Below, in pieces: positions 845 to 28,743 of a stretch of 30,496 nucleotides of DNA. This stretch comes from an uncultured archaeon (GTDB taxonomy: Archaea > Altiarchaeota > Altiarchaeia > JAFGQM01): positions 1 to 30,496 of the forward strand of contig CAZTIX010000001.1 in assembly GCA_964613935.1 (NCBI GenBank), read 5' to 3'. Numbering within the stretch: position 1 is the first letter of the stretch; every line of letters starts with the position of its first letter. The position numbers and the translations under genes are program-made. The notes under the pieces are model-generated. The model had not been told where the DNA came from. It saw only the letters and a list, made by a program, of their open reading frames with translations, and did not search any database.

Positions 845-1489
845 ATGCACAACACATTTCTCTTCGACATGGACGGAACCCTTGTAGACACCTTCGACCT
901 AATTCACGAATCGTTCAACGCCGCCCTCGCCGAGAACAAGAAGGGGCCCATTACCAAGGAGGACTTCGACAAGAAGCTTTTCGGGAAGCCGGTGGATTCG
1001 ACGGTGATGAGGCTCCTGCGGATATCCGACGACAGGGAGTACGGGAAGGTCGTGAGGGACTTCCGCACCCATTGGCTGCGCAACCTGCAAAAGGTCGAGG
1101 TTTTTAAGAATGTTCCTCTAACTTTAGAGCGGCTCAGGAAGAGGGGCCACAAGCTCGGGGTGGTTAGCACGTCGCCCCGCGGGGTGATATCCGAGACCCT
1201 TCGCCAGACGGGGATATACGACTACTTCGATGTCCTCATAGGAGAGGAGGACGCAAAGAGGAAGAAGCCCCATCAGGAGCCTGTGGTCAACGCGCTCAAG
1301 CTTCTGGGAGCGAAGCCGGAGGAGACGGTCTTCGTGGGCGACACGATATACGACGTGCAGGCGGGCAAGAGAGCGGGTTGCCACACGGTATTCCTTCTCA
1401 ACCCCTACAACGCCGGAGTCCTGGAGGAATCCGAGCCGGACAGAGTCATAAAAAACGTTTCCGAATTGCTGGAAAATGGCGGAACCTGA
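845..1489 (+). CDS. HAD-superfamily hydrolase (PpaX pyrophosphatase / phosphoglycolate phosphatase-like), 214 aa
   Basis: Motif I FDMDGTLVDT, motif II GVVST, motif III KKPHQEP and motif IV FVGDTIYDVQAG. It overlaps the aglB start by 14 nt. Confidence 0.92.
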   Translation: MHNTFLFDMDGTLVDTFDLIHESFNAALAENKKGPITKEDFDKKLFGKPVDSTVMRLLRISDDREYGKVVRDFRTHWLRNLQKVEVFKNVPLTLERLRKRGHKLGVVSTSPRGVISETLRQTGIYDYFDVLIGEEDAKRKKPHQEPVVNALKLLGAKPEETVFVGDTIYDVQAGKRAGCHTVFLLNPYNAGVLEESEPDRVIKNVSELLENGGT

Positions 1490-4400: not shown

Positions 4401-5021
4401 ATAACCTACCCCGACAAGATTCCGGAAGCTCCCGGCGGGGAGGAAGAGGCCGTCTCGGAGGAGCAGGAGCCCCAGGAGCAAGAGCCGCCGGCCAGCACAG
4501 TCGACGATACCGGCGAATCCGGAGAGGGCAGCGGCGAGGAGAGCATCCCGAACATGACCTTCGACCGCTATGACCCGGAGCTGCGCGAGGAATACGGCCT
4601 GACGCACTTCCCGGCCATCGTCTGGAACTGCGAGTTCAAGAAGCCCGGCAAGATGTCCAACACGACCTTCGAAGAAGAGGCCCTCTACAAGCTGGCCTGC
4701 ATAATGAACGACGCCGAGCCCCAGGAGCTGTGCCTGTCCCATGAGATATTCTACGATGAGAATGCCGGCAAGGTGAGCACCACCGACCAGGACATAGACG
4801 ACATCCTCAATGGCATAGCCAGGATAGAGAACTCCACAGCCTGCGGCCCGGAGGGCAGCGTCACAACGGTCCAGGTCTTCTACCCGCAGACATGCGAGTC
4901 CTGCGCGGAGCAAAAGCCCCTGCTGGACAAGCTAGAGCAGGATTTCGGCGAGCATCTGGACATATCCTACTACTGCGTAGGCGGCGAGGATTATTGCGTT
5001 CCCCGCCTCGGGGGAGCCTAA
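1476..5021 (+). CDS. aglB: Oligosaccharyltransferase AglB/STT3 with an N-terminal TM extension, a Cys-rich insert and a C-terminal thioredoxin-like appendage, 1181 aa
   Basis: Many TM segments, EL1 motif SMDDPYFH, VEEDLMG, EL5 TISE (TIXE motif), WWDYG at about 3372-3386, ADP, a DK-type helix DDTLINK and the terminal VKIY strand. Confidence 0.96.
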   Translation: MAEPEKKRKAAKERLLDPDALSSSPQTIALIALLLFLLLWSLFPNGPTTVMLAAVIIGATGINLYLTTSDLMESVKSKWSILPAAIGLLLLAVLLQSPGQMLLIILLASYVALSMAVALGFIKIQTAIIMGLLLTAVLFRAYPAMPGSGSSAGHLISMDDPYFHYKQTERLYELGDVPDKDLTIYPPDGRGAPQKFPYYYNTYLALLTSNTVRDVMLLYPVLIAAFGAIAMFLFLRELTGDWKSGMLGGFFFATMPAVLSKSVAGAVEEDLMGMVLGIFSLYLLAKAFRTSGRENLKYSLLSGVAFFITLISWKGVIFLYAVPFTALAIYALAGIILKHDMWNTTRSALLAGIIPVAGNLLFINPGRLDLTQLAPYGALLFMGLWAEVIRVRLWKGEDRKTAPEKRFIFPLAILVTAALLAMAAFAGVDRIVDIPQRTYENFAGTGATNYLVDKTISEQAAFSRGDLLQRLSIGYGRYNIAEVLTLLMAALLPLAILYHFFKKDKDRLFDLLRAYLIGLVFFLVAMQFVWLESRLVFSQSLGFLLLGAMVGLILPSSREELPTWKVIPLLIIIVLIPFSTFYPYKGLDAWGDSQRVSGVHPAWFLGVEWLDENIEPGYYTGNEYINGDFVLTWWDYGHFITALSDSTVIADPLQANEEYIMRTARFFYNTTSEKEAIGWLMEQPWNPRDETGEYKVRYIILDDTLINKASALAFLGTNHYEYPNGYTAVDGVCEVGQVCQNVENGLEARRVDGDYVCDRGEVCVRDQRARTEKRRCCEPDPAQCCNMSLSYKVINQKNGSARLMRGPGTPVYGRYTLETGGAACRPEYVTSTEPVFVVEGGERRTVTRRFLYTGFSGLPYADGGQYPAFLIMTYEDGTQSLKFISRDCSTKDAEEVLAGGADLLKNLGYGRSIGDGIRAPQIFVHAPSRWMDSMFTELYLKDAANLQHFEIIEDAFTQETSDGKANVYPAVKIYRITYPDKIPEAPGGEEEAVSEEQEPQEQEPPASTVDDTGESGEGSGEESIPNMTFDRYDPELREEYGLTHFPAIVWNCEFKKPGKMSNTTFEEEALYKLACIMNDAEPQELCLSHEIFYDENAGKVSTTDQDIDDILNGIARIENSTACGPEGSVTTVQVFYPQTCESCAEQKPLLDKLEQDFGEHLDISYYCVGGEDYCVPRLGGA

Positions 5022-14979: not shown

Positions 14980-16410
14980 ATGAAGGTCTTTGTCATAGGT
15001 CTGGACGGATGCAACTGGGAGATTTTGGACAAGCTCATCAAAAAGGGAGACCTGCCGAACATAGCGCGCATAAAGAAGGAGGGAGCCCGGGGCAGTCTGG
15101 AGAGCTGCCTTCCGCCGGTGACGGCCCCCAACTGGAAGTGCTACTCGACCGGCAAGAACCCTGGCAAGCTGGGGGTCTTCTGGTGGGAGAGTATCGACTG
15201 CGCCAAGAAGAAGGTGAGCGTCCCCACGTCCTACTCCTTCAAGAGCGGGGAGATGTGGGACCGGATGAGCCGCGAGGGCAAGAGGGTCGCCGTCATCAAC
15301 ATGCCCACCACCTATCCGCCCAAGAGGATCAACGGCTTCATGATATCTGGAGGGCCGGACTCTCTAGAAAGCGGCTTCACCTATCCGAAAGAGCTCGAGG
15401 GCAGGCTAAAGAAGGAGTTCGGCTACCGCGCGCTGCCCAAGAGAGTCAGCCTCTTGGAGTCCGGCAACCGCGAGGTCATAGAGGAGGTTAGGGCGGCGAT
15501 AAGGACGAGGTTCGAGGTCGCCAAGGCCCTGCTGGCGGAGGCCGACTACGACTTCGCCCACCTGACCATCTATTTGATAAACGTGCTCCAGCACTTCTTC
15601 TGGGACGACGACTGCGTCAGGAAGGCCTGGAGGGACATAGACAGGGGCATAGGCGAGCTCATGGAGCAGTTCAAGGAAGCCGACTTCCTGTTCATGTCGG
15701 ACCACGGCTCCAACCGGATAAAGGTCAAGTTCAACATCAACACCTGGCTCGAGAAAGAAGGCTACCTGGCCCTCCGCAGCAAGCCGTCCAAGGGCCTCCT
15801 CCTGAGGCTGGGCCTGAACAAGGAGCGAGTGGTCCGGCTGCTCACCAGGCTGGGCCTGAAGGATTTCGCCAAGAGAGTCGTCGGCGGGCGGGCCAGCCTT
15901 CCCACCTCCGCGGGAGTCGTCCAGAGCGCCGGAAAGGAAGGGGCCGTAGACTGGGGGAAGACAAAGGTCGTCGCCAGCGGACAGGGACCCGTCTATTTGA
16001 ACATACCCAGGAAATCCCCGGAATACCGCCGGGTCAGGGACGAGATAATAGGAAAGCTAGAGAACCTCGAGCATCGGGGTATCAAAATCGCCAAGAAGGT
16101 CCACACGCGGGATGAGATATACTCGGGCCCATATCTCAAGAAGGCTCCCGACCTGATAATCGACCAGGGCGAGAACGTCCACATAACCGGCTCCCTGGGC
16201 TTTGAAAAGGTTTTCAGCAAACCCTCCAAATGGCGAGGCGAGAACTCCAAGTTCGGGGTGTTCATGGCCCGCGGACCCAGAATCAAGAAAGGCAAGGTCA
16301 AAAAGCCGCACATACTCGACCTGGCCCCCACCGCGCTCAAACTGATGGGCATGGAGCCGGGGAGAGGGTTGGACGGCAGAGCCTTGAATATAATCTCCTC
16401 GAGCAGCTGA
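14980..16410 (+). CDS. Alkaline phosphatase superfamily protein (nucleotide pyrophosphatase/phosphodiesterase-like), 476 aa
   Basis: IGLDG, PPVTAPNWKCYSTGKNPG (predicted nucleophile Thr48), DVLQH-like INVLQHFFW, SDHG, APDL and a C-terminal HILDLAPT. No signal peptide. Confidence 0.88.
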   Translation: MKVFVIGLDGCNWEILDKLIKKGDLPNIARIKKEGARGSLESCLPPVTAPNWKCYSTGKNPGKLGVFWWESIDCAKKKVSVPTSYSFKSGEMWDRMSREGKRVAVINMPTTYPPKRINGFMISGGPDSLESGFTYPKELEGRLKKEFGYRALPKRVSLLESGNREVIEEVRAAIRTRFEVAKALLAEADYDFAHLTIYLINVLQHFFWDDDCVRKAWRDIDRGIGELMEQFKEADFLFMSDHGSNRIKVKFNINTWLEKEGYLALRSKPSKGLLLRLGLNKERVVRLLTRLGLKDFAKRVVGGRASLPTSAGVVQSAGKEGAVDWGKTKVVASGQGPVYLNIPRKSPEYRRVRDEIIGKLENLEHRGIKIAKKVHTRDEIYSGPYLKKAPDLIIDQGENVHITGSLGFEKVFSKPSKWRGENSKFGVFMARGPRIKKGKVKKPHILDLAPTALKLMGMEPGRGLDGRALNIISSSS

Positions 16411-16466
16411 GACCCGAAATCACTTTTCAACCGTAAATCGCAATTTATTGGCTTGTTTCTTCCAAG

Positions 16467-17258
16467 ATGGACCTCAAAAAATCGCTCAGGCACGCCATGT
16501 TGGCTCTAATGCACGCCACGGGTATGCATCGCCTCTCTCGGAGCGACAGGAAAGGACTACTAGTCCTGGCCTTCCACAAGGTCCCCGACAGGGACGCTTT
16601 CGAGCGGAAGATGCTGATACTGAAGGAGCTCTGCGACATTGCGAGCGTTGGGGATTTCCTGGAGGGGAAGCTCGACCCGGAGCGCCTGAGCGCCGCCGTG
16701 ACCTTCGACGACGGCTTCGCCAGCGTGGCCGAGAACGCCCTTCCCGTTTTGAAGAAGCACTCGATGCCCGCCGTAATATTCCTCACCTCTGGTTTTCTGG
16801 ACTCGAGGGACAAGGGCCGCTTCTGCAGGGAGAATCTCGGGGTGCGGCCGGCCGAAAGCATGACGTGGGAACAGGCAAGGACGGTGAGCGAGGATTTTGA
16901 ATTGGGCGGCCACGGCCGGGGCCATGTGGATTTAGCTTCACTCTCTCCGGCGGACGCCTTGAAAGAGATTGCCGAGGACAGAGAGCGAATAAAGAAGAAG
17001 ACCGGCAAGAAGCCCCGCTATTTCGCCTACCCGCTCGGGGGTGCGAAAAACATAAGTGAGACGGCCAGAAAAGCGGCCGAGAGGGCAGGATATGAGGCCG
17101 CCTTCACCATACTCCCCGGAGTCAACCAGAAGGGCACCGACCGCTTCCTGCTGCGCCGCATATCGGTCGACCCCGGGATGTCCGACACCGCCTTCAAGTC
17201 CGCCGTCCTCGGCAACTACCGAAGGCTGAAAGCGGCCAAGGACGCTCTTGCAAGATGA
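16467..17258 (+). CDS. Polysaccharide deacetylase (CE4/NodB-like), 263 aa
   Basis: LAFHKV, VTFDDG, IFL, MTW, GGHGRGH (metal His pair), FAYPLG and LRRI. Confidence 0.88.
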   Translation: MDLKKSLRHAMLALMHATGMHRLSRSDRKGLLVLAFHKVPDRDAFERKMLILKELCDIASVGDFLEGKLDPERLSAAVTFDDGFASVAENALPVLKKHSMPAVIFLTSGFLDSRDKGRFCRENLGVRPAESMTWEQARTVSEDFELGGHGRGHVDLASLSPADALKEIAEDRERIKKKTGKKPRYFAYPLGGAKNISETARKAAERAGYEAAFTILPGVNQKGTDRFLLRRISVDPGMSDTAFKSAVLGNYRRLKAAKDALAR

Positions 17259-18595
17259 AGCCCCGACCCAACATCCTCTGGATAGTCATGGACGCGGCCA
17301 GGGCGGACCACCTCTCCTGCATGGGCCATTCCAGGAAAACCACGCCCAACGTCGACGCCTTGGCCGAGGAGGGCCTGCTCTTCGAGAACGCCTTCTCCAC
17401 CTCCGACTGGACTCCACCGAGCCACGCCTCCATGCTCACCGGCAAGCTGCCCTGCCGCCACGGCGTCTACGACAAGACGCGCTTCGACCAAATAAGAGAC
17501 AAGACCGTCGGCGAGCGCCTGCCTCCCGAGTACGAGAGCCTGTTCATCGACTCGATGCCACATCTCAGGGGCATCGGAGCCGACCGGGGCTTCAAGAAGA
17601 GGGTGTCCACGACCCTTGACGCGTCTCCCGGACAGCCCCTCTACTGGCAATCGCTCATGAGGGAAGTCCTGGGATTGGACAGTTGGGAGACCTTCTACAA
17701 AGCGGAGACCATAAAATCGTTCGCAGGCGGCGCGCTATCCAGGAAAAAGCCGTTCTTCGTGTTCGCGAACTTCGATGATGCCCACTTCCCCTACGACCCT
17801 CCAAGGAGGTTCGAGAGATTCACAGCCCCGGGCATGGATGGCGATGCGATGAGTAAACTGGCCGGCCGCAAAAGCCTTCTGCGAAATGTAGCTGAGAAGG
17901 TGACCGGCAGGCGAAAATCCGGCCTCCGGCAGACGCTCAGTCGAAAGAGCAAAGATCTCACATCAAAGGAAAAAGAGATTCTAAAGGCCCTCTATGACAG
18001 CGAGCTGCTTTATCTGGACAATGCGATCGGCAAGCTTGTCAATTTCTTGAAATCCAGAGGAATCTACGACAGCACGCTAATCATAATAACCTCGGACCAC
18101 GGAGAGCTCTTCGGCGAGCACGGCAGGGTAATGCACGGCCGGGGGAAGAGCCACAGCCTCTACTCCGCGGTTACGCGCGTGCCCTTGGTTATGAGAGGGC
18201 CGGGAGTCCCACGCAAGAGGGTCGCGGCTATGGTCTCTCTGGCCGACCTCGCCCCGACCGTCTGCTCGCTCCTGGGAATCGGATGCGGGAAGAGGCTTGA
18301 CGGAGTCCCGCTGGTCCCCCCTCGCCGCGAGTATCATGAGCATGTCGTCTCCGAGGCGGAGGGCGTGAAGAGCATAAGGACGAAGACCCGCCACCTCATC
18401 CGGTCGGAGGAGGGGGTTGAGCTCTACGACGTCCCGAAGGACCCCGAAGAGAGGAAAGACATATCGAAGACCGAGAAGAGGACTGCGAAGTCGCTTCTCG
18501 CCCACCTCTCGAAAAAAACCAAGCTCGGCCCCCGCCAGTCGCTGAGAAGCAAGATAACCCGCCTGAAGAAGTCGGGTCGCCCGGGCGGCTCCTGA
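17255..18595 (+). CDS. Sulfatase-like hydrolase/transferase (AP superfamily) lacking the formylglycine motif, 446 aa
   Basis: PNILWIVMDAARADH, TPNVD, WTPPSHASMLTG (Thr in place of C/SxPxR), DAHFPY, LYDSELLYLD, TSDHGE, VPLVM and ELYD. Confidence 0.9.
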   Translation: MKPRPNILWIVMDAARADHLSCMGHSRKTTPNVDALAEEGLLFENAFSTSDWTPPSHASMLTGKLPCRHGVYDKTRFDQIRDKTVGERLPPEYESLFIDSMPHLRGIGADRGFKKRVSTTLDASPGQPLYWQSLMREVLGLDSWETFYKAETIKSFAGGALSRKKPFFVFANFDDAHFPYDPPRRFERFTAPGMDGDAMSKLAGRKSLLRNVAEKVTGRRKSGLRQTLSRKSKDLTSKEKEILKALYDSELLYLDNAIGKLVNFLKSRGIYDSTLIIITSDHGELFGEHGRVMHGRGKSHSLYSAVTRVPLVMRGPGVPRKRVAAMVSLADLAPTVCSLLGIGCGKRLDGVPLVPPRREYHEHVVSEAEGVKSIRTKTRHLIRSEEGVELYDVPKDPEERKDISKTEKRTAKSLLAHLSKKTKLGPRQSLRSKITRLKKSGRPGGS

Positions 18596-18597
18596 GT

Positions 18598-18606
18598 GCT
18601 TTTTAT
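18598..18606 (+). promoter_or_regulatory. Putative internal TATA box (GCTTTTTAT) for the first RHH-LGY gene
   Basis: The AT-rich element starts about 38 nt before the ATG at 18638. The same 9-mer occurs at 22391-22399 upstream of the second RHH gene. It could also terminate the upstream gene. Confidence 0.35.
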
Positions 18607-18637
18607 TTTGCGCGCATGTAATTCCAAACCAGTCAAA

Positions 18638-18835
18638 ATGGCGGAAATAAATCTCGATTTGCCGGAAGACCTCCTCAAGAAGCTGGAGAAGAGCGCCAAG
18701 GATGCCGACTTCGATTCGGTCGAAGCCTACCTAAAGTACGTTCTGGAAGAGCTCGTGTCCGACGAAGCGGAAGTCAGCGAGGAGGACGAGAAGAAAATAA
18801 AGGAGCGCCTTGCGGACCTGGGCTACATGGACTGA
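18638..18835 (+). CDS. Small acidic ribbon-helix-helix (CopG-like) protein with a C-terminal ERLADLGYMD tail, 65 aa
   Basis: MAEINLDLPEDLLKKLEKSAKDADFDSVEAYLKYVLEELV has a strand-helix-turn-helix pattern and is a clear paralogue of 22483-22698. Start is AAA-ATG at 18638. Confidence 0.8.
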   Translation: MAEINLDLPEDLLKKLEKSAKDADFDSVEAYLKYVLEELVSDEAEVSEEDEKKIKERLADLGYMD

Positions 18836-18841
18836 TTGGCC

Positions 18842-19777
18842 ATGCCCAGTGAAGTCCCTTACTTAGTCGAAGGCGCTGAGAGGAAGTTAGCCGGAGAGGA
18901 CTGGGACGTTCTCATAATCCTAGATGCCTGCAGGTACGACTTCTTCAAACGCCTCTATTCAGAACACATAGGCGCAGAGCTCGGAAGGGCCGTCTCTCCA
19001 GCCACGTGCACCATGGAGTGGCTCAGCAAGGTTTTTCCCGGCCAGTACAAAGACACGGTTTACATATCCGCCAATCCCTACATAAACTCCAAGAAGGCCA
19101 GCAGAGACCGTCGCGGACACGTATATGACGGAAAGAAGCACTTCTTCAAGGTCATCGACTCCTGGCTGACCGGGTGGGACGATGCCATAAAGTCAGTGCC
19201 CCCGGAGAGGGTCACCGCCGCCTTCAGGAAGGCCCGTTTGAAATATCCCAAAAAGCGGATTGTCCTCCACTACATCCAGCCCCATTTCCCCTACATAGGC
19301 GAGTCCCATAGGCGCTATCTCGCAGGAGTCTCAAAAGAATCCATCCAACATCATTCCCTGCCTCCGAAAACATCGGAGAGGAGGAATACATCTAAAAAGG
19401 ACTTGCTTGCACCACTCAAGAAGCGCGCAATCAGCCTCATATTCCGATTCTTCGGCACAGCCGGCGTCTGGAGGACAGTGACCTTCCTCCACCCGAACCG
19501 CCGCGTCTCGCAGCAAGTCAAGATATACCTGAGCGAGGGCTGGGAGGGAATCAGAAAGGCTTACGAGGAGAACCTCAGAATCGTCCTGAAAGAGGCGTTC
19601 CGGGTTGCGAGCAGGAACGACCTCAACATCCTGATAACCTCCGACCACGGCGAGCTTTTGGGCGAGCACGGGTTGTTCGGGCATCGAGTTAACTCGCGAA
19701 AGCGAGAGAACACGGAGGTTCCCTGGCTTGTTATGAGAAAAGGCCCTCATGAAGAAAGCAGCAGGGCTGGCGATTAA
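18842..19777 (+). CDS. AP-superfamily (sulfatase-like) protein of the type found in archaeal glycosylation clusters
   Basis: LIILDACRYD, SPATCTMEW, SANP, HYIQPHFPY, ITSDHGELLGEHGLFGH and VPW. The start is placed at ATG 18842 (the track uses TTG 18836). Confidence 0.85.
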   Translation: MPSEVPYLVEGAERKLAGEDWDVLIILDACRYDFFKRLYSEHIGAELGRAVSPATCTMEWLSKVFPGQYKDTVYISANPYINSKKASRDRRGHVYDGKKHFFKVIDSWLTGWDDAIKSVPPERVTAAFRKARLKYPKKRIVLHYIQPHFPYIGESHRRYLAGVSKESIQHHSLPPKTSERRNTSKKDLLAPLKKRAISLIFRFFGTAGVWRTVTFLHPNRRVSQQVKIYLSEGWEGIRKAYEENLRIVLKEAFRVASRNDLNILITSDHGELLGEHGLFGHRVNSRKRENTEVPWLVMRKGPHEESSRAGD

Positions 19778-19794
19778 TTCCAGAACCCAAAGTC

Positions 19795-22230
19795 TCACGA
19801 GAGGGCTTCAAACACTTCGCGGTTGCTTATTTTTTTAACCCCGGATTCTATCTTCTGCGATTCATCCTCAAAGTTCTTGACAAGCGAATCGACCCGCCTG
19901 CGCAGGTCTGCTTTCCTGAAAGTCCCCTCCCCCTTTATCAAATAGTGCTCTTGCCCAAATCGCCCGAGGAGTTCCCCGTACTTTTCAGCCCAGCTGATGC
20001 TCAGCGCAGGCACTCCCTTGTTGTATGCGTGCACGATGCCGTGATATCTTGAGCTTACTATGAAATCCATTTGCCCCAAAATGAATTCCAAATCAATTGC
20101 TTCAATCTCCTGGGGAAAGTATTTTACCCCCGCGTCATCCTGATAAGCATGGGCCAGTTTTTCACAGAGCCACTTGTCCATTTCAGAGTATCTCAGAATC
20201 ATCACATTTTTTCCCAATCCCCGGACCCGATCTATTATCTGACGATATGCCTCAAGCAGGCTAGCCTCGCTCTTCTTGGACAGAACCCTGCTGTTCGGCA
20301 CCAGCGCCACAGACCCCTTCGCAACCCTTGCCTTCCCCTCCTCGGACGGCGATTTGTAGATGTTCCGCAGCTCGTATTTGCGCCTTCCCAAAACCAAGTC
20401 CGGTTTTTTCTCTACGTTTTTCCTTGTGAAAAACGCTAGGTCTTTCCGTCCTTGCTCCTCCCTCACGAATATTTTCCTAGGATATCTCAAATAGAGGAGC
20501 ATCAGGGGGTAAAGCAGCACTTTGTTAAGAATTCCATATTCAAAAGGCCCTATAGACTGCGGCAGGATGTAATAAGGCACGGAATATTTCTTAGCTAGCA
20601 TAATGTTCAACATGTATTTCAGGGAACCCCCGATGCCCGTCTGGGACGACAGGGCGAAGCCGCTTATGTCGACTATGAATCTCGCTCTCTTGACAGTCTC
20701 CTCGATTCTCTTCAATCCTGCCGGCCCTGTTTGACCTCCCAAAAGCCTAATCTGCGAATCAAAACTCCAAGGGACTGCTTCAAACGCGTATGCCCCCTTG
20801 TTCTTCCTCTTTGCAGCCCTGCTTGAGAACACATAAATCTTCGACTTCGGAAAGCGACGCTTCAGCTCGTCCACAGCAGTGAAAAGCATCGATTGAGACC
20901 CTTTGTTGGAGGGTTGAGCCCCCAGGATTACAATGTTCTCCCCCCCTTTTTGCCCCCTGCCTCTTTTCAATCCGTCCAAAAGTATTCTCAAGAAAAGAAT
21001 GCACAACTTTGCCATAATCTCAAAGGCCTTCTTTGCCTTCCTGCGAATGTCGGAAAGAAATAGCGACCTTGCAATCTTGCGATAGCGCCTCCCCCTTCCC
21101 ATCGAGATTTTGTTCCTGCGCTCCGACAGCTTCTTTTTCGCTTGTTTGACCCCTTCCGGGGCCGGTCGGCCGCTGATTTCGGCCTCCAAAATCCTCAGGC
21201 ATTCCCAGTTGAACCTCTTCTTTTTCATGCCCTGGGATTCCTGGATATCCCCTATGGAGCATTCCTCTGTCTCAAAGCAACTTTTGTGCTTTTGAAAGTA
21301 GCGCCTCCCCTTTTTGCTCCTTATGATGACGCTGGAGTCTCCGTTTCGGGAGGACTTCAGCGGAACATAGCAGTCGCCGAGGGATATGTCGGCTGAAGCG
21401 TTCAGCTTGTCCAGGCAGAACAGGCACCTTTCTAGCTGGAAGTAGTTCTTTAGCCGCATGCGCTCATTTCGCTCCACTATGAGCTCTCTCCCCGAATCAA
21501 ACACCAGCCTTACGTCTCCAGGCCACCCATTTTTCTTGTAGCGGTAGTCAAAAGACACGAGGCGTTCGTCATCCCGGCCGTATTTCTTCCTAAAGAAATC
21601 CACAAGGTTGAAATTCAGGGTTTTGTCACAGAAGAGCCCCAGGAAAAGGACTTTTTTGTCAGGAAGCCCCCCCCGCTCCATATATTTTTTGATTCCCGCT
21701 ATCTGGCAGGGAGTGCCGACTATCACACAATTCGGAGTTTCTGATTCCTTCATGTACTCTATTATCTCACTCATCGACGCCGGCAAATATTTGGATTTGG
21801 CAGCACTTCTCACTTTTGGGGGATCCCTCACCTCTTTTAATCTGGCAGGCCCCTCCTCAGAAGCGTCAAAGTCCAGAAGGAAGGCCCGTTCGAAATCCCC
21901 GCTTTCCAAAAGCCTCTCAACTAGCTTGCTGGCAATCCCGCCGCTGGTCGAAGCCATCCGACCCTCCAATTCCTTATCATGAGCTATATAACAGCCCATA
22001 TGATTTCCCGCCAGTAGGCTCTCATCAAAACTCTCGGGAACACAATCGACGTTCCATCCAGGGCACAGATTCAGGCAGAGACCGCAGTTGGTGCAGGCCT
22101 CCTCATCAACGCGCGGAAGGAACTGCCCGCCTTTAAACTCCATCGAAACTGCGCCGGCAGGACAGACGGCAGAGCACATGCCGCAGGATGTGCACAAATT
22201 GCGCTCCCTCGTCTTAAGAACATTGTCCAT
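19795..22230 (-). CDS. Fusion of a 2x[4Fe-4S] ferredoxin, an F420-hydrogenase beta subunit (FrhB/FdhB)-like domain and a polysaccharide pyruvyltransferase-like domain, 811 aa
   Basis: CTSCGMCSAVCP, CTNCGLCLNLCP, STSGG, SKY, VGTPCQI, GLFC, GWPG, CLFCLD and DISLGD, followed from about aa 432 by NKG, DISGFA, PQSIGPF, VRE, PDLV and SSRYHGIVHAYNKGVP. Confidence 0.85.
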   Translation of the reverse strand: MDNVLKTRERNLCTSCGMCSAVCPAGAVSMEFKGGQFLPRVDEEACTNCGLCLNLCPGWNVDCVPESFDESLLAGNHMGCYIAHDKELEGRMASTSGGIASKLVERLLESGDFERAFLLDFDASEEGPARLKEVRDPPKVRSAAKSKYLPASMSEIIEYMKESETPNCVIVGTPCQIAGIKKYMERGGLPDKKVLFLGLFCDKTLNFNLVDFFRKKYGRDDERLVSFDYRYKKNGWPGDVRLVFDSGRELIVERNERMRLKNYFQLERCLFCLDKLNASADISLGDCYVPLKSSRNGDSSVIIRSKKGRRYFQKHKSCFETEECSIGDIQESQGMKKKRFNWECLRILEAEISGRPAPEGVKQAKKKLSERRNKISMGRGRRYRKIARSLFLSDIRRKAKKAFEIMAKLCILFLRILLDGLKRGRGQKGGENIVILGAQPSNKGSQSMLFTAVDELKRRFPKSKIYVFSSRAAKRKNKGAYAFEAVPWSFDSQIRLLGGQTGPAGLKRIEETVKRARFIVDISGFALSSQTGIGGSLKYMLNIMLAKKYSVPYYILPQSIGPFEYGILNKVLLYPLMLLYLRYPRKIFVREEQGRKDLAFFTRKNVEKKPDLVLGRRKYELRNIYKSPSEEGKARVAKGSVALVPNSRVLSKKSEASLLEAYRQIIDRVRGLGKNVMILRYSEMDKWLCEKLAHAYQDDAGVKYFPQEIEAIDLEFILGQMDFIVSSRYHGIVHAYNKGVPALSISWAEKYGELLGRFGQEHYLIKGEGTFRKADLRRRVDSLVKNFEDESQKIESGVKKISNREVFEALS

Positions 22231-22419
22231 TTATTTCCGACTTTTAATATCTCTGATGCCGAACATCTCCGATGCTTTAACAGAGCCGAATCTTGCGCTT
22301 GCAAGCGTCTCTTGCCCCTCAAAAAGGCAAGTGCAGTATATTCAATAGCCAATGTAAAAAACAGGGCGCTTCGGCCCCAAACCCAAAAGCGCTTTTTATG
22401 CGCCCAATCAAAGGCGGCC

Positions 22420-22427
22420 TTTTTATA
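22420..22427 (+). promoter_or_regulatory. Putative TATA box (TTTTTATA) for the RHH-cysD-cysN operon
   Basis: Good archaeal TATA match in the 252-nt divergent intergenic region. A second TTTTTAT lies at 22393-22399. Confidence 0.45.
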
Positions 22428-22443
22428 GGCTCTATCCGAATAT

Positions 22444-22472
22444 ACACTCCAATAACACTCCAAATAGAGTGT
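22444..22472. repeat. ACACTC triple repeat (two direct, one inverted), candidate operator
   Basis: ACACTC at 22444-22449 and 22455-22460 (11-nt period; ACACTCCAA is repeated) and GAGTGT at 22467-22472, ending 10 nt before the RHH ATG. Confidence 0.6.
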
Positions 22473-22482
22473 CACGGCGAGA

Positions 22483-22698
22483 ATGACTGAAAAAGTCACC
22501 CTGAAAATTCCAAAGAACCTCTACAGGAAACTCAAGAGGCGGATAAGCGGCACTGGATTCAGCTCCGTCACGGAATTCGTTGTTTTTGTGATGAGGTCGG
22601 TTGCCTCCGCCCAGGCGGTTGAAGGCAGAGAGGACCTGACCGAAGAGGAAATAAGTCTGGTGCGAGAGAGGCTCAGACGCCTCGGCTACCTTGATTAA
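22483..22698 (+). CDS. Ribbon-helix-helix (CopG-family) protein with a C-terminal ERLRRLGYLD tail, 71 aa
   Basis: Strand KVTLKIP, helix KNLYRKLKRRI, turn GTGFSS and helix VTEFVVFVMR, then an acidic EEE linker and the LxxLGY tail. Confidence 0.85.
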   Translation: MTEKVTLKIPKNLYRKLKRRISGTGFSSVTEFVVFVMRSVASAQAVEGREDLTEEEISLVRERLRRLGYLD

Positions 22699-22742
22699 GA
22701 TTGACCCAAATGGAACCTGAGCTAGGGAAGCACTGCGTGGGC

Positions 22743-23540
22743 ATGAGCCATCTGGATGAGCTGGAGAGCAAGAGCGTCTTCATAATCCGGGAGGCCTACA
22801 AGCAGTTCAAGAACATAGCGATGCTGTGGTCCATCGGAAAGGATTCCAGCTGCCTCCTCTGGCTAGTCAGAAAGGCCTTCTACGGCCGCATACCCTTTCC
22901 TGTCATACACATAGACACCGGCTACCAGATACCCAAGATGATAGAATGGCGCGACAAGTACGCCAAGAAGTGGAACCTCAACCTGATAATCTCCCAGAAC
23001 AAGGAGGCCCTGGAGCGAGGCATGAACAACAAGAGCAAGCTGGCCTGCTGCACGGCTCTCAAGACCGACGCCCTGAAGCAGACGTTGGACGAGCACAAAT
23101 TTAGAGCTCTGCTGCTGGGAATCCGAAGGGACGAGCACGGTGTTAGGGCGAAGGAGAGGGTCTTCTCCCCCCGCAATCAGGACTTCAAGTGGGACTACAA
23201 GAACCAACCCCCCGAGCTCTGGGACCAGTACAAGGCCAAGGCCGAGGAGAAGGAGCACATCAGGGTCCACCCCCTCCTGCACTGGACCGAGGTCGACGTC
23301 TGGGAGTACATAAAGCGTGAGAGCATACCCCTCATACCCCTTTACTTCGCCAAGGACGGGAAGCGCTACCGGAGCCTGGGATGCGAGTGTTGCTGCGCCC
23401 CGGTGGACTCGGACGCAGACACAATCGACAAGGTCATAGGCGAGCTGAAGATGACTCGCCAGGGCGAGAGGGACGGCCGGGCCCAGGACAAGGAGGAGGC
23501 GAACGCAATGCAGAAGCTGAGGGCACTGGGCTACATGTGA
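22743..23540 (+). CDS. cysD: Sulfate adenylyltransferase subunit 2 (ATP sulfurylase small subunit)
   Basis: LDELESKSVFIIREA, PP-loop WSIGKDS, HIDTG, GIRRDE...RAKER, RVHPLLHWTE, RYRSLGC, ERDGRAQD and terminal LRALGYM. The start may instead be ATG 22710. Confidence 0.95.
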   Translation: MSHLDELESKSVFIIREAYKQFKNIAMLWSIGKDSSCLLWLVRKAFYGRIPFPVIHIDTGYQIPKMIEWRDKYAKKWNLNLIISQNKEALERGMNNKSKLACCTALKTDALKQTLDEHKFRALLLGIRRDEHGVRAKERVFSPRNQDFKWDYKNQPPELWDQYKAKAEEKEHIRVHPLLHWTEVDVWEYIKRESIPLIPLYFAKDGKRYRSLGCECCCAPVDSDADTIDKVIGELKMTRQGERDGRAQDKEEANAMQKLRALGYM

Positions 23541-23550
23541 CAAGCTAAAA

Positions 23551-24783
23551 ATGGAGGCAAGCGAGGAGTATCTTAGGCTGGTAATCGTAGGGCACGTGGA
23601 CCACGGGAAGTCGACGCTGATAGGCCGGCTTCTCTACGATACCGGCTCGCTTCCAGAGGGCAAGATAGAGGAGATAAAGAGCATCTGCAACGCCCTGGGC
23701 AAGGAGCTGGAGTTCGGCTATGTCATGGACAACCTAGAGGAGGAAAGAGACCAGAGCGTGACCATCGACACCGCCCAGATATTCTTCAAGACTGACAAGC
23801 GCCACTATGTGATAATCGACGCCCCCGGCCACGTGGAGTTTGTCAAGAACATGGTGACGGGCGCGTCCCAGGCCGAGGCGGCCGTCCTCATAGTTGACGC
23901 CGAGGAGGGGGTTCAGGAGCAGACCCGGCGCCATGCCTACATCCTCGGCATGCTCGGCCTGAAGCAGGTCGCGGTCGTGGTTAACAAGATGGACCTGGTC
24001 GGCTACTCCGAGGAGCGGTTCGACGAGGTTTCAAAGGACCTCAGGCAATTTCTGGGGAAAATAGGCATAGACCCCACCTACGTAATCCCCATATCCGCTC
24101 GCGAGGGCGATTTCGTGGCGGGGAAGACCGGCAGCATGCCCTGGCACGACGGCCCCACTGTCTTGGAGGCGCTCGATTCCTTCAAGCCTCGCGAGCCCCG
24201 CATGAGCAAGCCGCTGAGGTTCTCGGCGCAGGACGTCTACAAGCGGGACAAGCGGATAATCGTGGGCCGCGTGGAGAGCGGGACGCTCCGAAAGGGGGAG
24301 GAAGTCCTGGTGCTTCCTTCCGGAGAGAAGACCTCCGTCAGGAGCATCGAGGAGTGGCTCAAGGACGACGTCAGGGAGGCGGTGGCCGGCAAGGCCACGG
24401 GCCTCACTACCGAGGACAAGCTCTTCATAGACCGGGGCGACGTGCTGTGCGACCCCAAGAAACCGCCCACAGTGACCGACCGGTTTGAGGCGCAGCTTTT
24501 CTGGATGGACAAGGCCCCTCTGAAGAAGGGGGAGAGGATAATACTGAAATGCTCCACCCAGAAGGCCGTGTGCGAGGTCGAGGAGTTCAAGAGAGTGCTG
24601 GACTCCTCCACCCTGCGGGAGCTGGAGGGCAAAGAAGAGCTGGGCAACCGGGAGGTGGCCGATGCGGTGATAAAGACCGACAAGCCCATAGTCATCGAGG
24701 ATTTCAACAAGACGGAGGAGCTGGGCCGGTTCGTCCTGGAGCGGCTCAACACCTGCGCGGGGGGGATAATAACCGGAGCATGA
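23551..24783 (+). CDS. cysN: Sulfate adenylyltransferase subunit 1 (EF-Tu-like GTPase) without a fused APS-kinase domain, 410 aa
   Basis: GHVDHGKSTLIGRLLYDT, EERDQSVTID, DAPGH, MVTGASQA, QTRRH, NKMD, PISA and a terminal GRFVL...AGGII. It directly follows cysD. Confidence 0.95.
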   Translation: MEASEEYLRLVIVGHVDHGKSTLIGRLLYDTGSLPEGKIEEIKSICNALGKELEFGYVMDNLEEERDQSVTIDTAQIFFKTDKRHYVIIDAPGHVEFVKNMVTGASQAEAAVLIVDAEEGVQEQTRRHAYILGMLGLKQVAVVVNKMDLVGYSEERFDEVSKDLRQFLGKIGIDPTYVIPISAREGDFVAGKTGSMPWHDGPTVLEALDSFKPREPRMSKPLRFSAQDVYKRDKRIIVGRVESGTLRKGEEVLVLPSGEKTSVRSIEEWLKDDVREAVAGKATGLTTEDKLFIDRGDVLCDPKKPPTVTDRFEAQLFWMDKAPLKKGERIILKCSTQKAVCEVEEFKRVLDSSTLRELEGKEELGNREVADAVIKTDKPIVIEDFNKTEELGRFVLERLNTCAGGIITGA

Positions 24784-24811
24784 CGCCGGAGACAAGCGGG
24801 GTTGGTTCAAA

Positions 24812-25534
24812 ATGATCGCCGTCTACGCCATAGACGCCCTGGAGTTCAACAGGGTCGAGAAGTACGACACCAAGAATCTCAAGCAGGAGCACTACGGCAA
24901 GACCGACATAAGCGAGTTCTCCCAACCGCGCACCATGGTCCTTTGGAGCTCCTTCATGACCGGGGAGAACAAGGAGAAGGAGATTCTGGCCAAGGGCGAC
25001 AAGGAGATGTGGAACACCCGGATACCCCTTGAGAAGACCTTCTTCTCGCAGTTCGACAGCCCGAAAATCCTGGACCTGCCCGGCTACAACTACGACCTGG
25101 GGGTCCACGAGAAGTCCAGGAAACTGCTCAAGTCGTTCTTCGATGCGAAGAGCGACGCGGAGAAGGAGCGCATAAGAAAGGAGTACAACAAGGACGCCTT
25201 CGAGCACCACAAAACGGTCAGGAAGCGCTTCCTCGGGGCGCTCGGAGAGGACCGCGATTTCGTCCTGGGCTATTTCAGCGTTGCCGACGTGGTGGGACAC
25301 CTCAACTTCGGCAACGACCTGATGATGAAGATGATATACCGGGAGCTGGACGAGCTGGCGGCGAAGGTCAGGGAAACGGCCGACCGCGTCTTGGTTCTGT
25401 CGGACCACGGTATGAAGGCCATCGGCAGATTCGGCGACCATTCCGGATACGGCTTCTGGAGCACGAACTGGGATGCGGGGCTGGACAGCCCCAGAATTAC
25501 CGACATGAAGGACTCGATACTCGCATTGAAATAG
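24812..25534 (+). CDS. Minimal AP-superfamily protein (core fold only), 240 aa
   Basis: AIDALE, QPRTMVLWSSFMTG (predicted nucleophile Thr41), ADVVGH, LSDHG and GDHS. Confidence 0.8.
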   Translation: MIAVYAIDALEFNRVEKYDTKNLKQEHYGKTDISEFSQPRTMVLWSSFMTGENKEKEILAKGDKEMWNTRIPLEKTFFSQFDSPKILDLPGYNYDLGVHEKSRKLLKSFFDAKSDAEKERIRKEYNKDAFEHHKTVRKRFLGALGEDRDFVLGYFSVADVVGHLNFGNDLMMKMIYRELDELAAKVRETADRVLVLSDHGMKAIGRFGDHSGYGFWSTNWDAGLDSPRITDMKDSILALK

Positions 25535-25536
25535 CC

Positions 25537-26232
25537 ATGAGTCTTGAGAGAGTTAAGAGCGCCTACCGGGAGACCTATGAATCCAGAGGCCTGGACGACA
25601 TCGAGAAGAGAATAGATTCTCGCATAAAGCGCAAAAGGAGCAGACGCGCACTTTTCATCTTGCGGGAGCGCCTGGAGAATCTGGAGGAAAAAAAGGTCCT
25701 CGCGGTGGGCTGCGGAAAGGGAGAGCTCATAGTGACTTTCGGTCTCGAGGACATAGACATTTGCGGCGTCACGCCAGACCGGGGCGAGATAGAGGTGGCC
25801 GAATCCTGGCAGAGCCACTATGGACTGGAGAACAGGGCGGTTGAGGGGCGCGGAGAAGACCTCCCCTTTCCCGACGAATCCTTCGACTTGGTGATAGCCC
25901 ATGACGTCCTCGAGCACGTCCAGGACATGGAGAAGACGGTCAGCGAGATGGCCAGGGTGGCTAAAAGGGGCGGACACCTCTACATCCGGGCTCCCAACTA
26001 CCGGAAGCCCAGGGAGGGCCATTACGATCTGTTCTGGATTCCATTCATGCCGAAAGCGCTCGGCCGGCTCTACCTGCGTCTTTTGGGCAGGCCTACCTGT
26101 TTCCTGAACACAATCCACTACACCTCTCCCGGGAAAGTCCGGAAGAGCCTGGAAAAGCACGATTTAACAGTCTTTCCTCTAAATAAAGCGGGGTTTTTCT
26201 CACCCATCGAGCTGCTAGCCAGGAAGGACTGA
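25537..26232 (+). CDS. Class I SAM-dependent methyltransferase, 231 aa
   Basis: VLAVGCGKG, GEDLPFPDESFDLV, DVLEHV, RVAKRGG and PN...EGHY. Confidence 0.88.
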   Translation: MSLERVKSAYRETYESRGLDDIEKRIDSRIKRKRSRRALFILRERLENLEEKKVLAVGCGKGELIVTFGLEDIDICGVTPDRGEIEVAESWQSHYGLENRAVEGRGEDLPFPDESFDLVIAHDVLEHVQDMEKTVSEMARVAKRGGHLYIRAPNYRKPREGHYDLFWIPFMPKALGRLYLRLLGRPTCFLNTIHYTSPGKVRKSLEKHDLTVFPLNKAGFFSPIELLARKD

Positions 26233-27369: not shown

Positions 27370-28743
27370 ATGGCGACTTTCCTGAGGAGGGCATCATCCG
27401 GGCTGGCTTACGTGTCGGGAGGCAATCTCCTGGGGGCAGTCATCTCGTTTCTGGTGACCGTAACGCTCGCTCAGGCCTTGGGAGTGAAGGACTACGGCCT
27501 GATGCTGCTGGCCCTGTCCATCCCCTCGGCCATGGTGGTTTTCACCGAGTGGGGCCTGAGTAGCCTGCTCTCTGCGGATATAGCCGCCTACCGGCCGAAA
27601 GGCGAGCTGTCCAAAATAAAGAAACTCCTCAAGCAGACCCTCTTCATCAAGGTGGCAATCTCCCTTTCGCTGATGGCTCTGCTCTTCCTGATAAGCGACA
27701 GCGTAATCCCTCAGTTCTACAGCGCGCGCGTTTCCAGCCTGGTGAAGATAGTGGCCCTGATGCTGCCCCTCAACGTGCTCGAGGAGCAGCTGAGGGTGAT
27801 ATTCATAGGGTTTTCCAAGTTCAATGGCATAGCTTGGATGCGTATCTTCCAGCCCATCTTCCGGCTCTCCCTGCTAATTTTGTTCCTCCAAATGGCCACA
27901 CTCGACCTCATCACCGCAACACTCCTCTACCCACTTTCCCTTCTATTGTCCTCCCTATTGGTAATTCCGCTCCTGATAGGCGTTTTTCGAAAGCTGCGGA
28001 GCGTCGCATCCTCGAAGGAAAACGTGCTTAAGGAGACCATAAAGGAGCACGGGAAATATGCGATTATGATAGTCCCCGTCAAGAAGGGCATAGACAACCT
28101 GCCCCTATGGCTAGCCGGCTTCTTACTGGGTGCCCCCGCCGCGGCTTTGTTCGGCCTGGCCAACAAGTTCTACGGATTCATATCCCTGGCGGTGAAATCC
28201 ATCGAGCAAGTCTTCCTGCCTCTGATGGCCGAGCAGACTGTGAAGGGCATACAGCGCCTGGTCCTCCTCTTTAAGAAGGGACTCAAGTTCGGCTTTTTGC
28301 TCTCCCTGGTCGCGGTGGCGGCGTCCATCCCGCTTCTACCCGTTGTGATAGAAGGCCTCTCCCTCGACAAGTACGTGGCCGCAATACCCATAGCCCAAGT
28401 CCTAATGCTGAACATGATAAGGTGGTTCTCTTTCATGACGGTCAGGCCTATACTCGTGTCGACAAAGAACCAGAAATACCTGTTCCTGTTTTATCTCTCG
28501 AAGCTTGCGATACTTTCCTCTTTTGGCTATGTCTTCCTAATGCTCATGGGCCACCCGATAGGGCTTGCCTGGGCCACCATCCTTACAGGAATACTCCTGA
28601 CCGTAATACATTATTGGATACTTTTGAAAATAGACAAAGCATTCGCCGTGAACATTCGCCGCGACCTTCTGACGATAGACGAAAAGGACAAGAGCATATA
28701 CCGGCGGTCCATGAAGCAAATCAGGGCGCGGCTAGGATTCTAG
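27370..28743 (+). CDS. Wzx/AglR-like oligosaccharide flippase (polysaccharide biosynthesis family), 457 aa
   Basis: About 12 hydrophobic segments, [11 protein letters not shown] near the N-terminus, and a mid-protein D...L...L...ALFGLA pattern typical of Wzx/MOP exporters. Confidence 0.85.

Follow-up and report, generated by a model that had tools for sequence, protein, structure and literature searches.

Do sulfatase-like enzymes encoded inside an archaeal glycan-biosynthesis cluster remove sulfate from glycans or add it? The question is raised by a 30,496-bp stretch of DNA from an uncultured altiarchaeote (lineage JAFGQM01; assembly GCA_964613935.1, contig CAZTIX010000001.1, positions 1 to 30,496 of the forward strand; hereafter, the window), which is an archaeal N-glycan biosynthesis cluster anchored by aglB and equipped with its own sulfate-activation operon. 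The window encodes, as maximal open reading frames (ORFs), four members of the alkaline-phosphatase (AP) superfamily, here named P1, P3, P4, and P8, and four such paralogues packed into 10.5 kb inside a glycan cluster anchored by aglB have not come together by chance. Judging from their sequences and gene neighborhoods, the four enzymes most likely serve to sulfate glycans, not to desulfate them. We regard the chances as about evenly balanced that they form a glycan sulfation system that is fed by adenosine 5'-phosphosulfate (APS), is independent of 3'-phosphoadenosine 5'-phosphosulfate (PAPS), and consists of a CysDN-P8 operon together with Thr-type AP enzymes.

An earlier reading of this DNA from its letters alone (the sequence-only reading) had described four AP-superfamily enzymes with Thr nucleophiles, no export signal, and no formylglycine signature, and this description holds. 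Pfam matches place P1 and P3 in the superfamily, and family alignments and predicted structures settle the weak cases, P4 and P8. The Thr codons lie exactly at 15121 (P1), 17411 (P3), 19010 (P4), and 24932 (P8), and within the respective family no other residue replaces the Thr at this predicted nucleophile position. The metal sites look intact, with the reservation that P1 has an invariant Asn (N201) where an Asp ligand is expected. For P1 and P8 a Thr nucleophile turned out to be no anomaly, being the norm in the nucleotide pyrophosphatase/phosphodiesterase (NPP) family. The (C/S)xPxR signature is missing, with T53-P-P-S-H57 in P3 and a T59 that lacks the Pro and the Arg in P4. No signal peptide or transmembrane (TM) segment was found in any of the four (Kyte-Doolittle, 19-residue windows): the single value above 1.6 (1.68, residues 324-342 of P3) belongs to a strand in the core of the sulfatase fold, every N-terminus opens directly on the first beta-strand bearing the metal Asp, and the in-frame sequence 5' of each start is short and non-hydrophobic, the ORFs not being extendable upstream. 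Pfam and NCBIfam scans of the substantial ORFs of the 30.5-kb window returned no formylglycine-generating enzyme (FGE) or anaerobic sulfatase-maturating enzyme (anSME), as had been proposed, and no APS kinase or Sulfotransfer (1/2/3-type) domain. A classical PAPS-sulfotransferase domain was absent both from the window and from the Pfam-annotated contexts of related loci (L024-L029, L110-L114). By these features, none of the four is a formylglycine sulfatase and none is exported.

In P3 (17255..18595, + strand), Thr stands in for formylglycine; this 446-aa soluble sulfatase-fold enzyme matches PF00884 (E 4.2e-42) and SGSH_C (2.9e-9), both above cut-offs. Its T53 codon (ACT, 17411-17413) stands in the context SDWTPPSHA, and T53-P-P-S-H57 aligns column by column with the (C/S)-x-P-x-R of solved sulfatases. 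D12 and the SDHG metal motif align with the same structures, and both the N-terminal metal Asp and the D-H pair are present. A search with P3 returned ~9,300 cluster representatives at E<=1e-30, a number that counts all motifs together and does not give the size of the W-T-x-P-S-H clade to which P3 belongs. Among the 150 nearest of these representatives, which we used for a motif census of the clade, 114 aligned domains read TxPxH (typically W-T-[LP]-P-S-H-A-S) and only 8 read CxPxR. No TM-like segment was present in 70 of the 150, and about half have such segments; 12 long members carry 2 to 9 N-terminal TM segments, mostly ~7. We looked for a Rosetta-stone fusion in these long proteins and discarded the idea, their N-terminal extensions being polytopic membrane domains that match no Pfam family. 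A 'sulfatase' of a Halobacteria archaeon (P0064) also belongs to this clade; its nucleophile column holds Thr, and it bears the C-terminal tail motif described below. Scanning a genome collection with P3 recovered relatives only at <=31% identity (long matches), in Chloroflexota and Verrucomicrobiota, and an exact look-up of the P3 sequence gave no entry.

P4 (18836..19777, + strand) is a 313-aa mini sulfatase/EptA-like enzyme with a weak PF00884 match (E 6e-4) and an AlphaFold model of mean confidence (pLDDT) 90, whose best matches in the PDB are EptC, ICR-Mc, EptA, MCR-1, phosphonate-monoester hydrolases (PMH), and sulfatases. Its Thr codon (ACC, 19010-19012) encodes T59 when counted from the TTG start, which is the residue earlier numbered T57 from an ATG two codons downstream. 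The P4 family comprises ~1575 proteins of 270-330 aa, mostly archaeal, and D30, R33, D35, T59, Q148-P-H150, D270-H271, and H283 are invariant in an alignment of 34 homologues; in the predicted structure T59 sits at the N-terminus of a helix. The assignment of T59 as the nucleophile rests on this invariance and on the model, since in a profile comparison the alignment between P3 and the P4 family was confined to the SDHG region near the C-terminus. All five P4 homologue contexts lie within glycan clusters, beside flippases, GT4 glycosyltransferases, and methyltransferases; one has cysDN and another a CysD-like gene, with no cysN within 10 kb. The closest relative, L110, lacks both P3 and P4; the two are thus accessory, as expected for glycan-specific tailoring enzymes.

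Downstream lies the sulfate-activation operon, on the + strand throughout. Its first gene encodes a 71-aa ribbon-helix-helix-like (RHH) protein (22483..22698), an ORF that is followed by cysD (22701..23540) for the catalytic subunit of sulfate adenylyltransferase (PF01507; NF003587, 362.7 bits, cut-off 195), cysN (23551..24783) for its 410-aa GTPase subunit (TIGR02034, 361.9 bits, cut-off 336.1), and P8 (24812..25534). CysN has no fused APS-kinase domain, and its match to the bifunctional CysNC model covers only positions 21-430 of 632. P8 is a 240-aa mini-NPP (PF01663, E 1.6e-7) with a model of pLDDT 96.5 that best matches NPP structures. Its T41 codon (ACC, 24932-24934, context SQPRTMVLW) marks the residue that opens helix 41-50 in the predicted structure, and the two-metal site is complete: D8, T41, D159, H163, D198, H199, and H210 are invariant in an alignment of 30 homologues. 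The family has 571 members of ~240 aa, and P8 is 60-75% identical across Woesearchaeota, Altiarchaeales, Aenigmarchaeota, MSBL1, and Methanothrix.

To place P8 in its genomic setting, metagenomes were scanned with the P8 alignment, which yielded 80 loci, 48 of them with >1.3 kb of upstream sequence and therefore used for counting cysN. In 46 of the 48, cysN lies directly upstream of P8 on the same strand (median gap ~12 bp), and cysD precedes cysN-P8 in 29/30 loci. Between cysD and cysN there is often a TauE/SafE-family membrane protein (16 loci; PF01925) or a DUF2061 protein. Enzymes of the P1 or P3 type are among the commonest of the remaining neighbors, together with GT4s, flippases, nucleotidyltransferases, sugar epimerases, and a PBP/ABC uptake system; sulfate import genes (TauE/SafE and the PBP/ABC system) are found within or next to the operon. 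When only cysDN-P8 loci of at least 8 kb are considered, 14/35 carry a further P1/P3/P4-type gene. The closest relative, L110, retains P1, the deacetylase, the small RHH ORF, cysD, cysN, and P8, and L024 repeats the module as P4-like gene, small RHH ORF, cysD, DUF2061, cysN, P8-like gene, and P3-like gene. A motif scan and tblastn with an Escherichia coli CysC probe did not find APS kinase in 79 of the 80 P8 loci (887 kb) or in the window. It was detected in 1/90 sequences scanned, L058, where the probe did recover the real copy.

The identity of 60-75% across phyla and the translational coupling to cysN mark P8, on sequence grounds, as a core component of sulfate activation and not a sugar-specific tailoring enzyme. 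From the adjacency to cysN and the rarity of APS kinase it follows that P8 holds the position that an APS-consuming enzyme has in bacteria, here within glycan rather than cysteine biosynthesis. By gene order and conserved residues, P8 is the third catalytic gene of a widespread archaeal cysD-cysN operon without APS kinase, and an operon of this composition suggests that the sulfate comes from APS and not from PAPS. A published study of CysDN in anaerobic methanotrophic (ANME) archaea does not mention a third gene; a cysD-cysN-miniNPP operon in place of the PAPS branch would be an undescribed arrangement added by the window.

Several loci depart from the common order. In L058 (6300-20700) the archaeal-type cysD-cysN-P8 is accompanied by a more bacterial-like cysD-cysN on the opposite strand, followed by the APS kinase, and by two P3-like genes. 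In L025/L026 (13195-15238) and in L049, a P8-like gene comes directly after a CysD-like gene, the cysN that usually separates the two being absent there, an adjacency that suggests that P8 partners CysD rather than, or besides, CysN; L025 also has two ORFs with the RHH tail in tandem. In L054 (~1250-1716), the position of TauE/DUF2061 between cysD and cysN is taken by an ORF resembling the HIT family (HxHxH, spotted on inspection of the translation). A P3-like gene of L024 (14320-17974) is two genes away from a protein with a faint match to glucuronyl C5-epimerase (PF06662).

A short C-terminal motif is shared between the operon and the AP enzymes. It consists of an [ED]-rich linker followed by +RL+xLGY[LIFM], at or near the C-terminus, and outside the window it is seen, for instance, at L039, 1056-1883. 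The RHH protein of the window ends in ...EEEISLVRERLRRLGYLD, its tail reading RERLRRLGYLD; RHH_1 matches 9 of 16 members of this family, and the top PDB match is the RHH of NikR (E 0.12). The same small ORF with the same tail occurs in 31/34 related cysD loci. CysD of the window ends in ...MQKLRALGYM (23514-23537), and KLR[AS]LGYM or a close variant terminates 44 of the 46 CysD ORFs of related loci. The motif is also found in a cytoplasmic loop (IVKRLGKLGYIP) of 12/16 TauE proteins. Among the AP enzymes, the tail follows an acidic linker in 78-85 of the 150 P3-clade representatives, 21/120 P1-family proteins, and 19-20/120 P4-family proteins; among P8 homologues there was none. Other ORFs of the loci bear it in 12 of 446 cases, mostly RHH-like or AP-like. 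A variant reads L-[KR]-x-[LM]-G-[KR]-I, and the C-terminus of the window's P3, '...KITRLKKSGRPGGS', resembles this G-K-I form. The shared tail probably serves as a peptide that docks these proteins on one and the same partner, either CysN or P8. The literature that we consulted on the CysD C-terminus contains nothing on a role of that end; one of the papers deals with a PAPS-dependent system and was set aside. A role of the tail Tyr as sulfate carrier (a sulfotyrosine swinging arm) was also considered and down-weighted, the common variant ending in G-K-I without Tyr.

P1 (14980..16410, + strand) keeps different company. This 476-aa cytoplasmic NPP-type enzyme is COG3379-like (PF01663, E 1.8e-36), and its T48 codon (ACG, 15121-15123, context CLPPVTAPNWK) aligns with the catalytic Thr of phosphonoacetate hydrolase (PhnA), the only PDB sequence match of P1; entries 3szy and 3t02, the latter a T-to-A mutant, differ at this position. 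T48, N201/H205, and D241/H242 are invariant in 29 homologues, with Asn201 at the column where NPPs carry a metal Asp, and a profile comparison with the P8 family gave a weak match only. Most homologues, bacterial and archaeal, are 45-52% identical to P1, and that of L110 is 67% identical. Immediately downstream is a CE4 polysaccharide deacetylase (16467..17258, + strand; PF01522, E 3.6e-24), the 3' end of which overlaps the start of P3 by 4 bp. The P1-deacetylase pair is present in the window and in 5/5 homologue contexts (L110, L111, L112, L113, and L114), often with overlapping stop and start codons, and these contexts span archaea and bacteria, including a metagenome-assembled genome (MAG) of Pacebacteria (Candidate Phyla Radiation) and a Korarchaeota contig in which the pair lies beside an STT3 gene. 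The constancy of this adjacency suggests a two-step modification of an N-acetylated sugar. P1 may work with the deacetylase, N-deacetylation being followed by sulfation in analogy to the heparan sulfate N-deacetylase/N-sulfotransferase (NDST). By that analogy sulfation as the end point is possible, and we would not bet on it.

These gene contexts redraw the picture of four cytoplasmic transferases that act on different sugars and are fed by the neighboring CysDN. What stands is that the enzymes are no formylglycine sulfatases, are cytoplasmic by prediction, and lie in an N-glycosylation cluster. P8, as conserved as it is from DPANN archaea to Methanothrix and coupled to cysN, does not fit among transferases for different sugars, and the group that P1 would transfer need not be sulfate, given that P1 accompanies a deacetylase, even in the Pacebacteria MAG, mostly with no cysDN nearby. 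A link to CysDN is borne out for P8 by the counts given above and is partial for the others (one of five contexts each for P4 and P1).

The mechanism that we favor would begin with CysDN, which activates sulfate to APS. P8 would then act directly on APS, most likely by accepting the sulfuryl group on Thr41 in the two-metal site, releasing AMP, and then handing the group on; this role as a sulfuryl relay is put forward tentatively, and we rate it below an even chance. P3 and P4 would be glycan-specific ping-pong sulfotransferases that modify a dolichol-phosphate-linked oligosaccharide at the cytoplasmic face before flipping, like Agl30 and Agl31 of Halobacterium, and of all parts of the proposal their assignment as glycan sulfotransferases is the one that we consider somewhat probable. 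Cys-to-Ser mutants of sulfatases trap a sulfated intermediate. Thr in place of formylglycine would similarly give a sulfo-enzyme that resists hydrolysis and that a sugar hydroxyl can still resolve; transfer to the sugar would therefore be favored over hydrolysis. The RL+xLGY tail on CysD, RHH, TauE, and many P1/P3/P4-type enzymes would dock to a common partner (CysN or P8) and so assemble a sulfation metabolon. A generalization in which many archaea sulfate glycans without PAPS, the operon importing and activating sulfate and a Thr-linked P8 relay feeding Thr-type transferases of the sulfatase and NPP folds docked through a peptide like the CysD tail, seems doubtful to us at its full extent.

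A number of observations weigh against this proposal. To our knowledge, the native chemistry of every characterized Thr-type enzyme of the AP superfamily is phosphoryl or phosphodiester transfer, not sulfuryl transfer, and an NPP site that attacked APS at phosphorus would merely undo its activation. We infer the donor, the acceptor, and the Thr-O-sulfate intermediate. The extreme conservation of P8 fits a housekeeping hydrolase serving CysDN equally well. Within 6-10 kb, cysDN is lacking from 3/5 P4 homologues and 4/5 close P1 homologues (1/5 P1 contexts has cysDN nearby), and one of these cysDN-less P1 contexts is the Pacebacteria MAG, whose group is not one in which sulfate activation would be expected. 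In the window itself, P1 and P4 have no tail and P3 only the degenerate variant, and the G-K-I variant implies that the tail Tyr is not essential.

Some of these points carry over to a phosphoryl explanation, in which P1, P3, and P4 would be cytoplasmic phospho-group transferases or hydrolases that act on nucleotide-activated or dolichol-(pyro)phosphate-linked intermediates (with phosphoethanolamine, phosphoglycerol, or sugar-phosphate as the group, or with cleavage of a pyrophosphate), while CysDN-P8 serves a separate step. All characterized Thr-nucleophile relatives (NPP, PhnA, EptA/MCR-1, and LtaS) perform phosphoryl or phosphodiester chemistry, the best structural matches of P4 are EptC, EptA, and MCR-1, the sole PDB sequence match of P1 is PhnA, and most P1 and P4 homologue contexts, including the Pacebacteria MAG, have no cysDN nearby. 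However, the enzymes have no membrane domain with which to reach lipid donors, no genes for CDP-alcohol or phospho-donor synthesis were seen among the window ORFs, P3-like and P4-like genes recur next to cysDN-P8, the tail motif is common to CysD and AP enzymes, and the sulfatase-like Agl30 and Agl31 are sulfotransferases in vivo (PMC11980604). On balance we find this explanation unlikely. Even less fits the notion that the enzymes act as formylglycine-independent hydrolytic sulfatases or as editing enzymes, trimming or recycling the sulfate of cytoplasmic intermediates. P3 does score well on sulfatase models and structures (PF00884 and SGSH_C above cut-offs), and Ser/Thr enzymes of the AP superfamily are generally known to have weak promiscuous sulfatase activity. 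Yet the formylglycine motif and the Arg of CxPxR are replaced across a very large clade, hydrolysis gets no further than a sulfo-Ser/Thr intermediate, as is known from the Cys-to-Ser mutants, the genes lie in biosynthetic clusters beside sulfate activation and not in degradative loci, and deletion of Agl30 or Agl31 lowers, rather than raises, sulfation (PMC11980604). Hydrolysis is thus a very improbable function.

The nearest competitor for P8 itself is a role as an accessory hydrolase of the ATP-sulfurylase, which would pull or proof-read the unfavorable CysDN reaction by acting on pyrophosphate-containing nucleotides, AMP-derived species, or stray APS, with P3 and P4 taking sulfate directly from APS. 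The complete NPP-type two-metal hydrolase site and the NPP structures as best matches speak for this role, as do the extreme conservation and translational coupling to cysN, which would suit a subunit-like helper, and the lack in P8 of the tail borne by the putative transferases. Against it, the formation of APS is already driven by the GTP that CysN hydrolyzes, hydrolysis of inorganic pyrophosphate is not a known activity of NPPs, and destruction of APS would be wasteful; P8 also occupies the place of the bacterial APS-consuming enzyme in loci of which 79/80 yielded no APS kinase. We consider a helper hydrolase rather improbable, though a stronger contender than the phosphoryl explanation.

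The remainder of the window is consistent with N-glycan assembly. The cluster is anchored as an N-glycosylation locus by the 1181-aa oligosaccharyltransferase AglB (1476..5021, + strand; PF02516), whose WWDYGH motif can be read in the translation and whose Pfam matches are confined to the STT3 N-terminal domain. Residues ~1040-1181 of AglB (~4590-5018) form a Cys-rich C-terminal extension with C-E-S-C (CxxC) and several more Cys, of thioredoxin-like appearance. Toward the 3' side follow a glycosyltransferase of the GlcNAc-1-P-transferase type, epimerases, a UDP-glucose dehydrogenase, and five GT4 glycosyltransferases, then the region of the four AP enzymes, and beyond it a methyltransferase, a sixth GT4, a Wzx-type flippase, one more epimerase, and a nucleotidyltransferase. 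The methyltransferase is S-adenosylmethionine-dependent, serves glycan tailoring, and lies on the same strand (25537..26232, +; PF08241, E 6.4e-21). The flippase is a candidate polysaccharide-biosynthesis protein of the Wzx/Agl15 type (27370..28743, + strand; PF01943, E 1.2e-14), and the proposed glycan modification would precede the step that it catalyzes. Between P4 and the operon, on the opposite strand (19795..22230, -), an 811-aa fusion for glycan tailoring joins a 2x[4Fe-4S] and FrhB/FdhB-like (F420-type) module to a polysaccharide pyruvyl transferase, according to Pfam. The GC content over 19000-23000, the stretch of this fusion, is 0.49-0.54 compared with ~0.60 elsewhere in the window, a homologue of the fusion lies directly upstream of cysD in L030, and L110 lacks it along with P3 and P4; this low-GC stretch may be an acquired insertion. 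The proteins of the window are rich in Lys and Arg and not acidic, and the host is therefore not a haloarchaeon. No tRNA genes were found in the window.

Were the broad generalization to hold, sulfo-Thr ping-pong would be a sulfotransferase mechanism new to the AP superfamily and to biological sulfation, the sulfate donor would be supplied by a new route, and the system would reach into bacteria by way of the very large W-T-x-P-S-H clade. If the proposal is correct, this uncharacterized clade, now annotated as 'sulfatase', would have to be re-annotated. The system would also be a second enzymatic solution for biological sulfation and provide tools for the enzymatic sulfation of carbohydrates without PAPS, and the docking motif common to these proteins suggests that a sulfation complex is physically assembled. 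In its general form the idea is not new and is largely in line with recently published genetics; the new elements are the Thr-for-formylglycine signature, the operon, and the motif that links transporter, regulator, sulfurylase, and transferases.

Compared with known systems, P3 and P4 share with the type I formylglycine sulfatases (SulfAtlas S1, PF00884) the fold, the N-terminal metal Asp, and the SDHG metal motif. They differ in having Thr for the Cys/Ser that becomes formylglycine and His or another residue for the motif Arg, in lacking a signal peptide, and in their biosynthetic context, and the window ORFs include no maturase (FGE/anSME). With EptA/MCR-1/EptC and LtaS, P3 and P4 have in common a Thr at the nucleophile position of a sulfatase-type fold. 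Those enzymes work by ping-pong through a covalent intermediate and transfer a group instead of hydrolyzing it. Unlike P3 and P4, which are soluble and cytoplasmic by prediction, they are extracytoplasmic enzymes that have a polytopic membrane domain and take the group from phospholipids. P1 and P8 resemble NPPs and phosphonoacetate hydrolase (PF01663) in the P-x-T nucleophile helix and in the DH/H metal ligands, whereas P8 is a minimal 240-aa core that has no nucleotide-binding insertions and is locked to cysN, and P1 has N201 for a metal Asp and an added C-terminal domain. The pairing of P1 with a deacetylase recalls heparan sulfate NDST, in which a deacetylase is likewise coupled to a sulfate-adding enzyme, as a functional analogy only: NDST has an unrelated fold and depends on PAPS, and P1 is a putative sulfating enzyme. 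Like the bacterial cysDNC operon, the operon of the window has bona fide CysD and CysN genes that are adjacent and co-oriented, with a third gene after cysN. This third gene is a mini-NPP instead of an APS kinase, however, RHH and often TauE/DUF2061 genes lie within the operon, and the neighbors are glycan genes, not genes of cysteine biosynthesis.

The closest functional parallel comes from haloarchaea, and the link to glycan sulfation that the sequence-only reading had named for them is borne out by the literature: Agl7 (HVO_2046) is tied to sulfation of dolichol phosphate (DolP)-hexose (PMC3892788), and Agl30 and Agl31 are sulfatase-like N-glycan sulfotransferases of Halobacterium salinarum (PMC11980604, PMC12624080). 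Agl30 (VNG1056C) and Agl31 (VNG1057C) are sulfatase-like AP-superfamily proteins of the Halobacterium aglB cluster, their deletion removes sulfate from the third and fourth sugars, and their expression in Haloferax leads to a sulfated pentasaccharide (PMC11980604). They act on the DolP-bound N-glycan before flipping (PMC11980604; PMC12624080); the 2025 paper on them does not address donor, nucleophile, threonine, or formylglycine (PMC11980604). Compared by published description, they share with the window enzymes the AP-superfamily, sulfatase-like character and the aglB-anchored cluster. Soluble Agl31 and membrane-bound Agl30 mirror the soluble and ~7-TM forms of the P3 clade, and the C5-epimerase-like neighbor in L024 has a counterpart in Agl32 of Halobacterium. 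Unlike the Halobacterium system, that of the window belongs to a non-halophilic host, combines four enzymes of two AP subfamilies, and has a dedicated cysDN-P8 operon.

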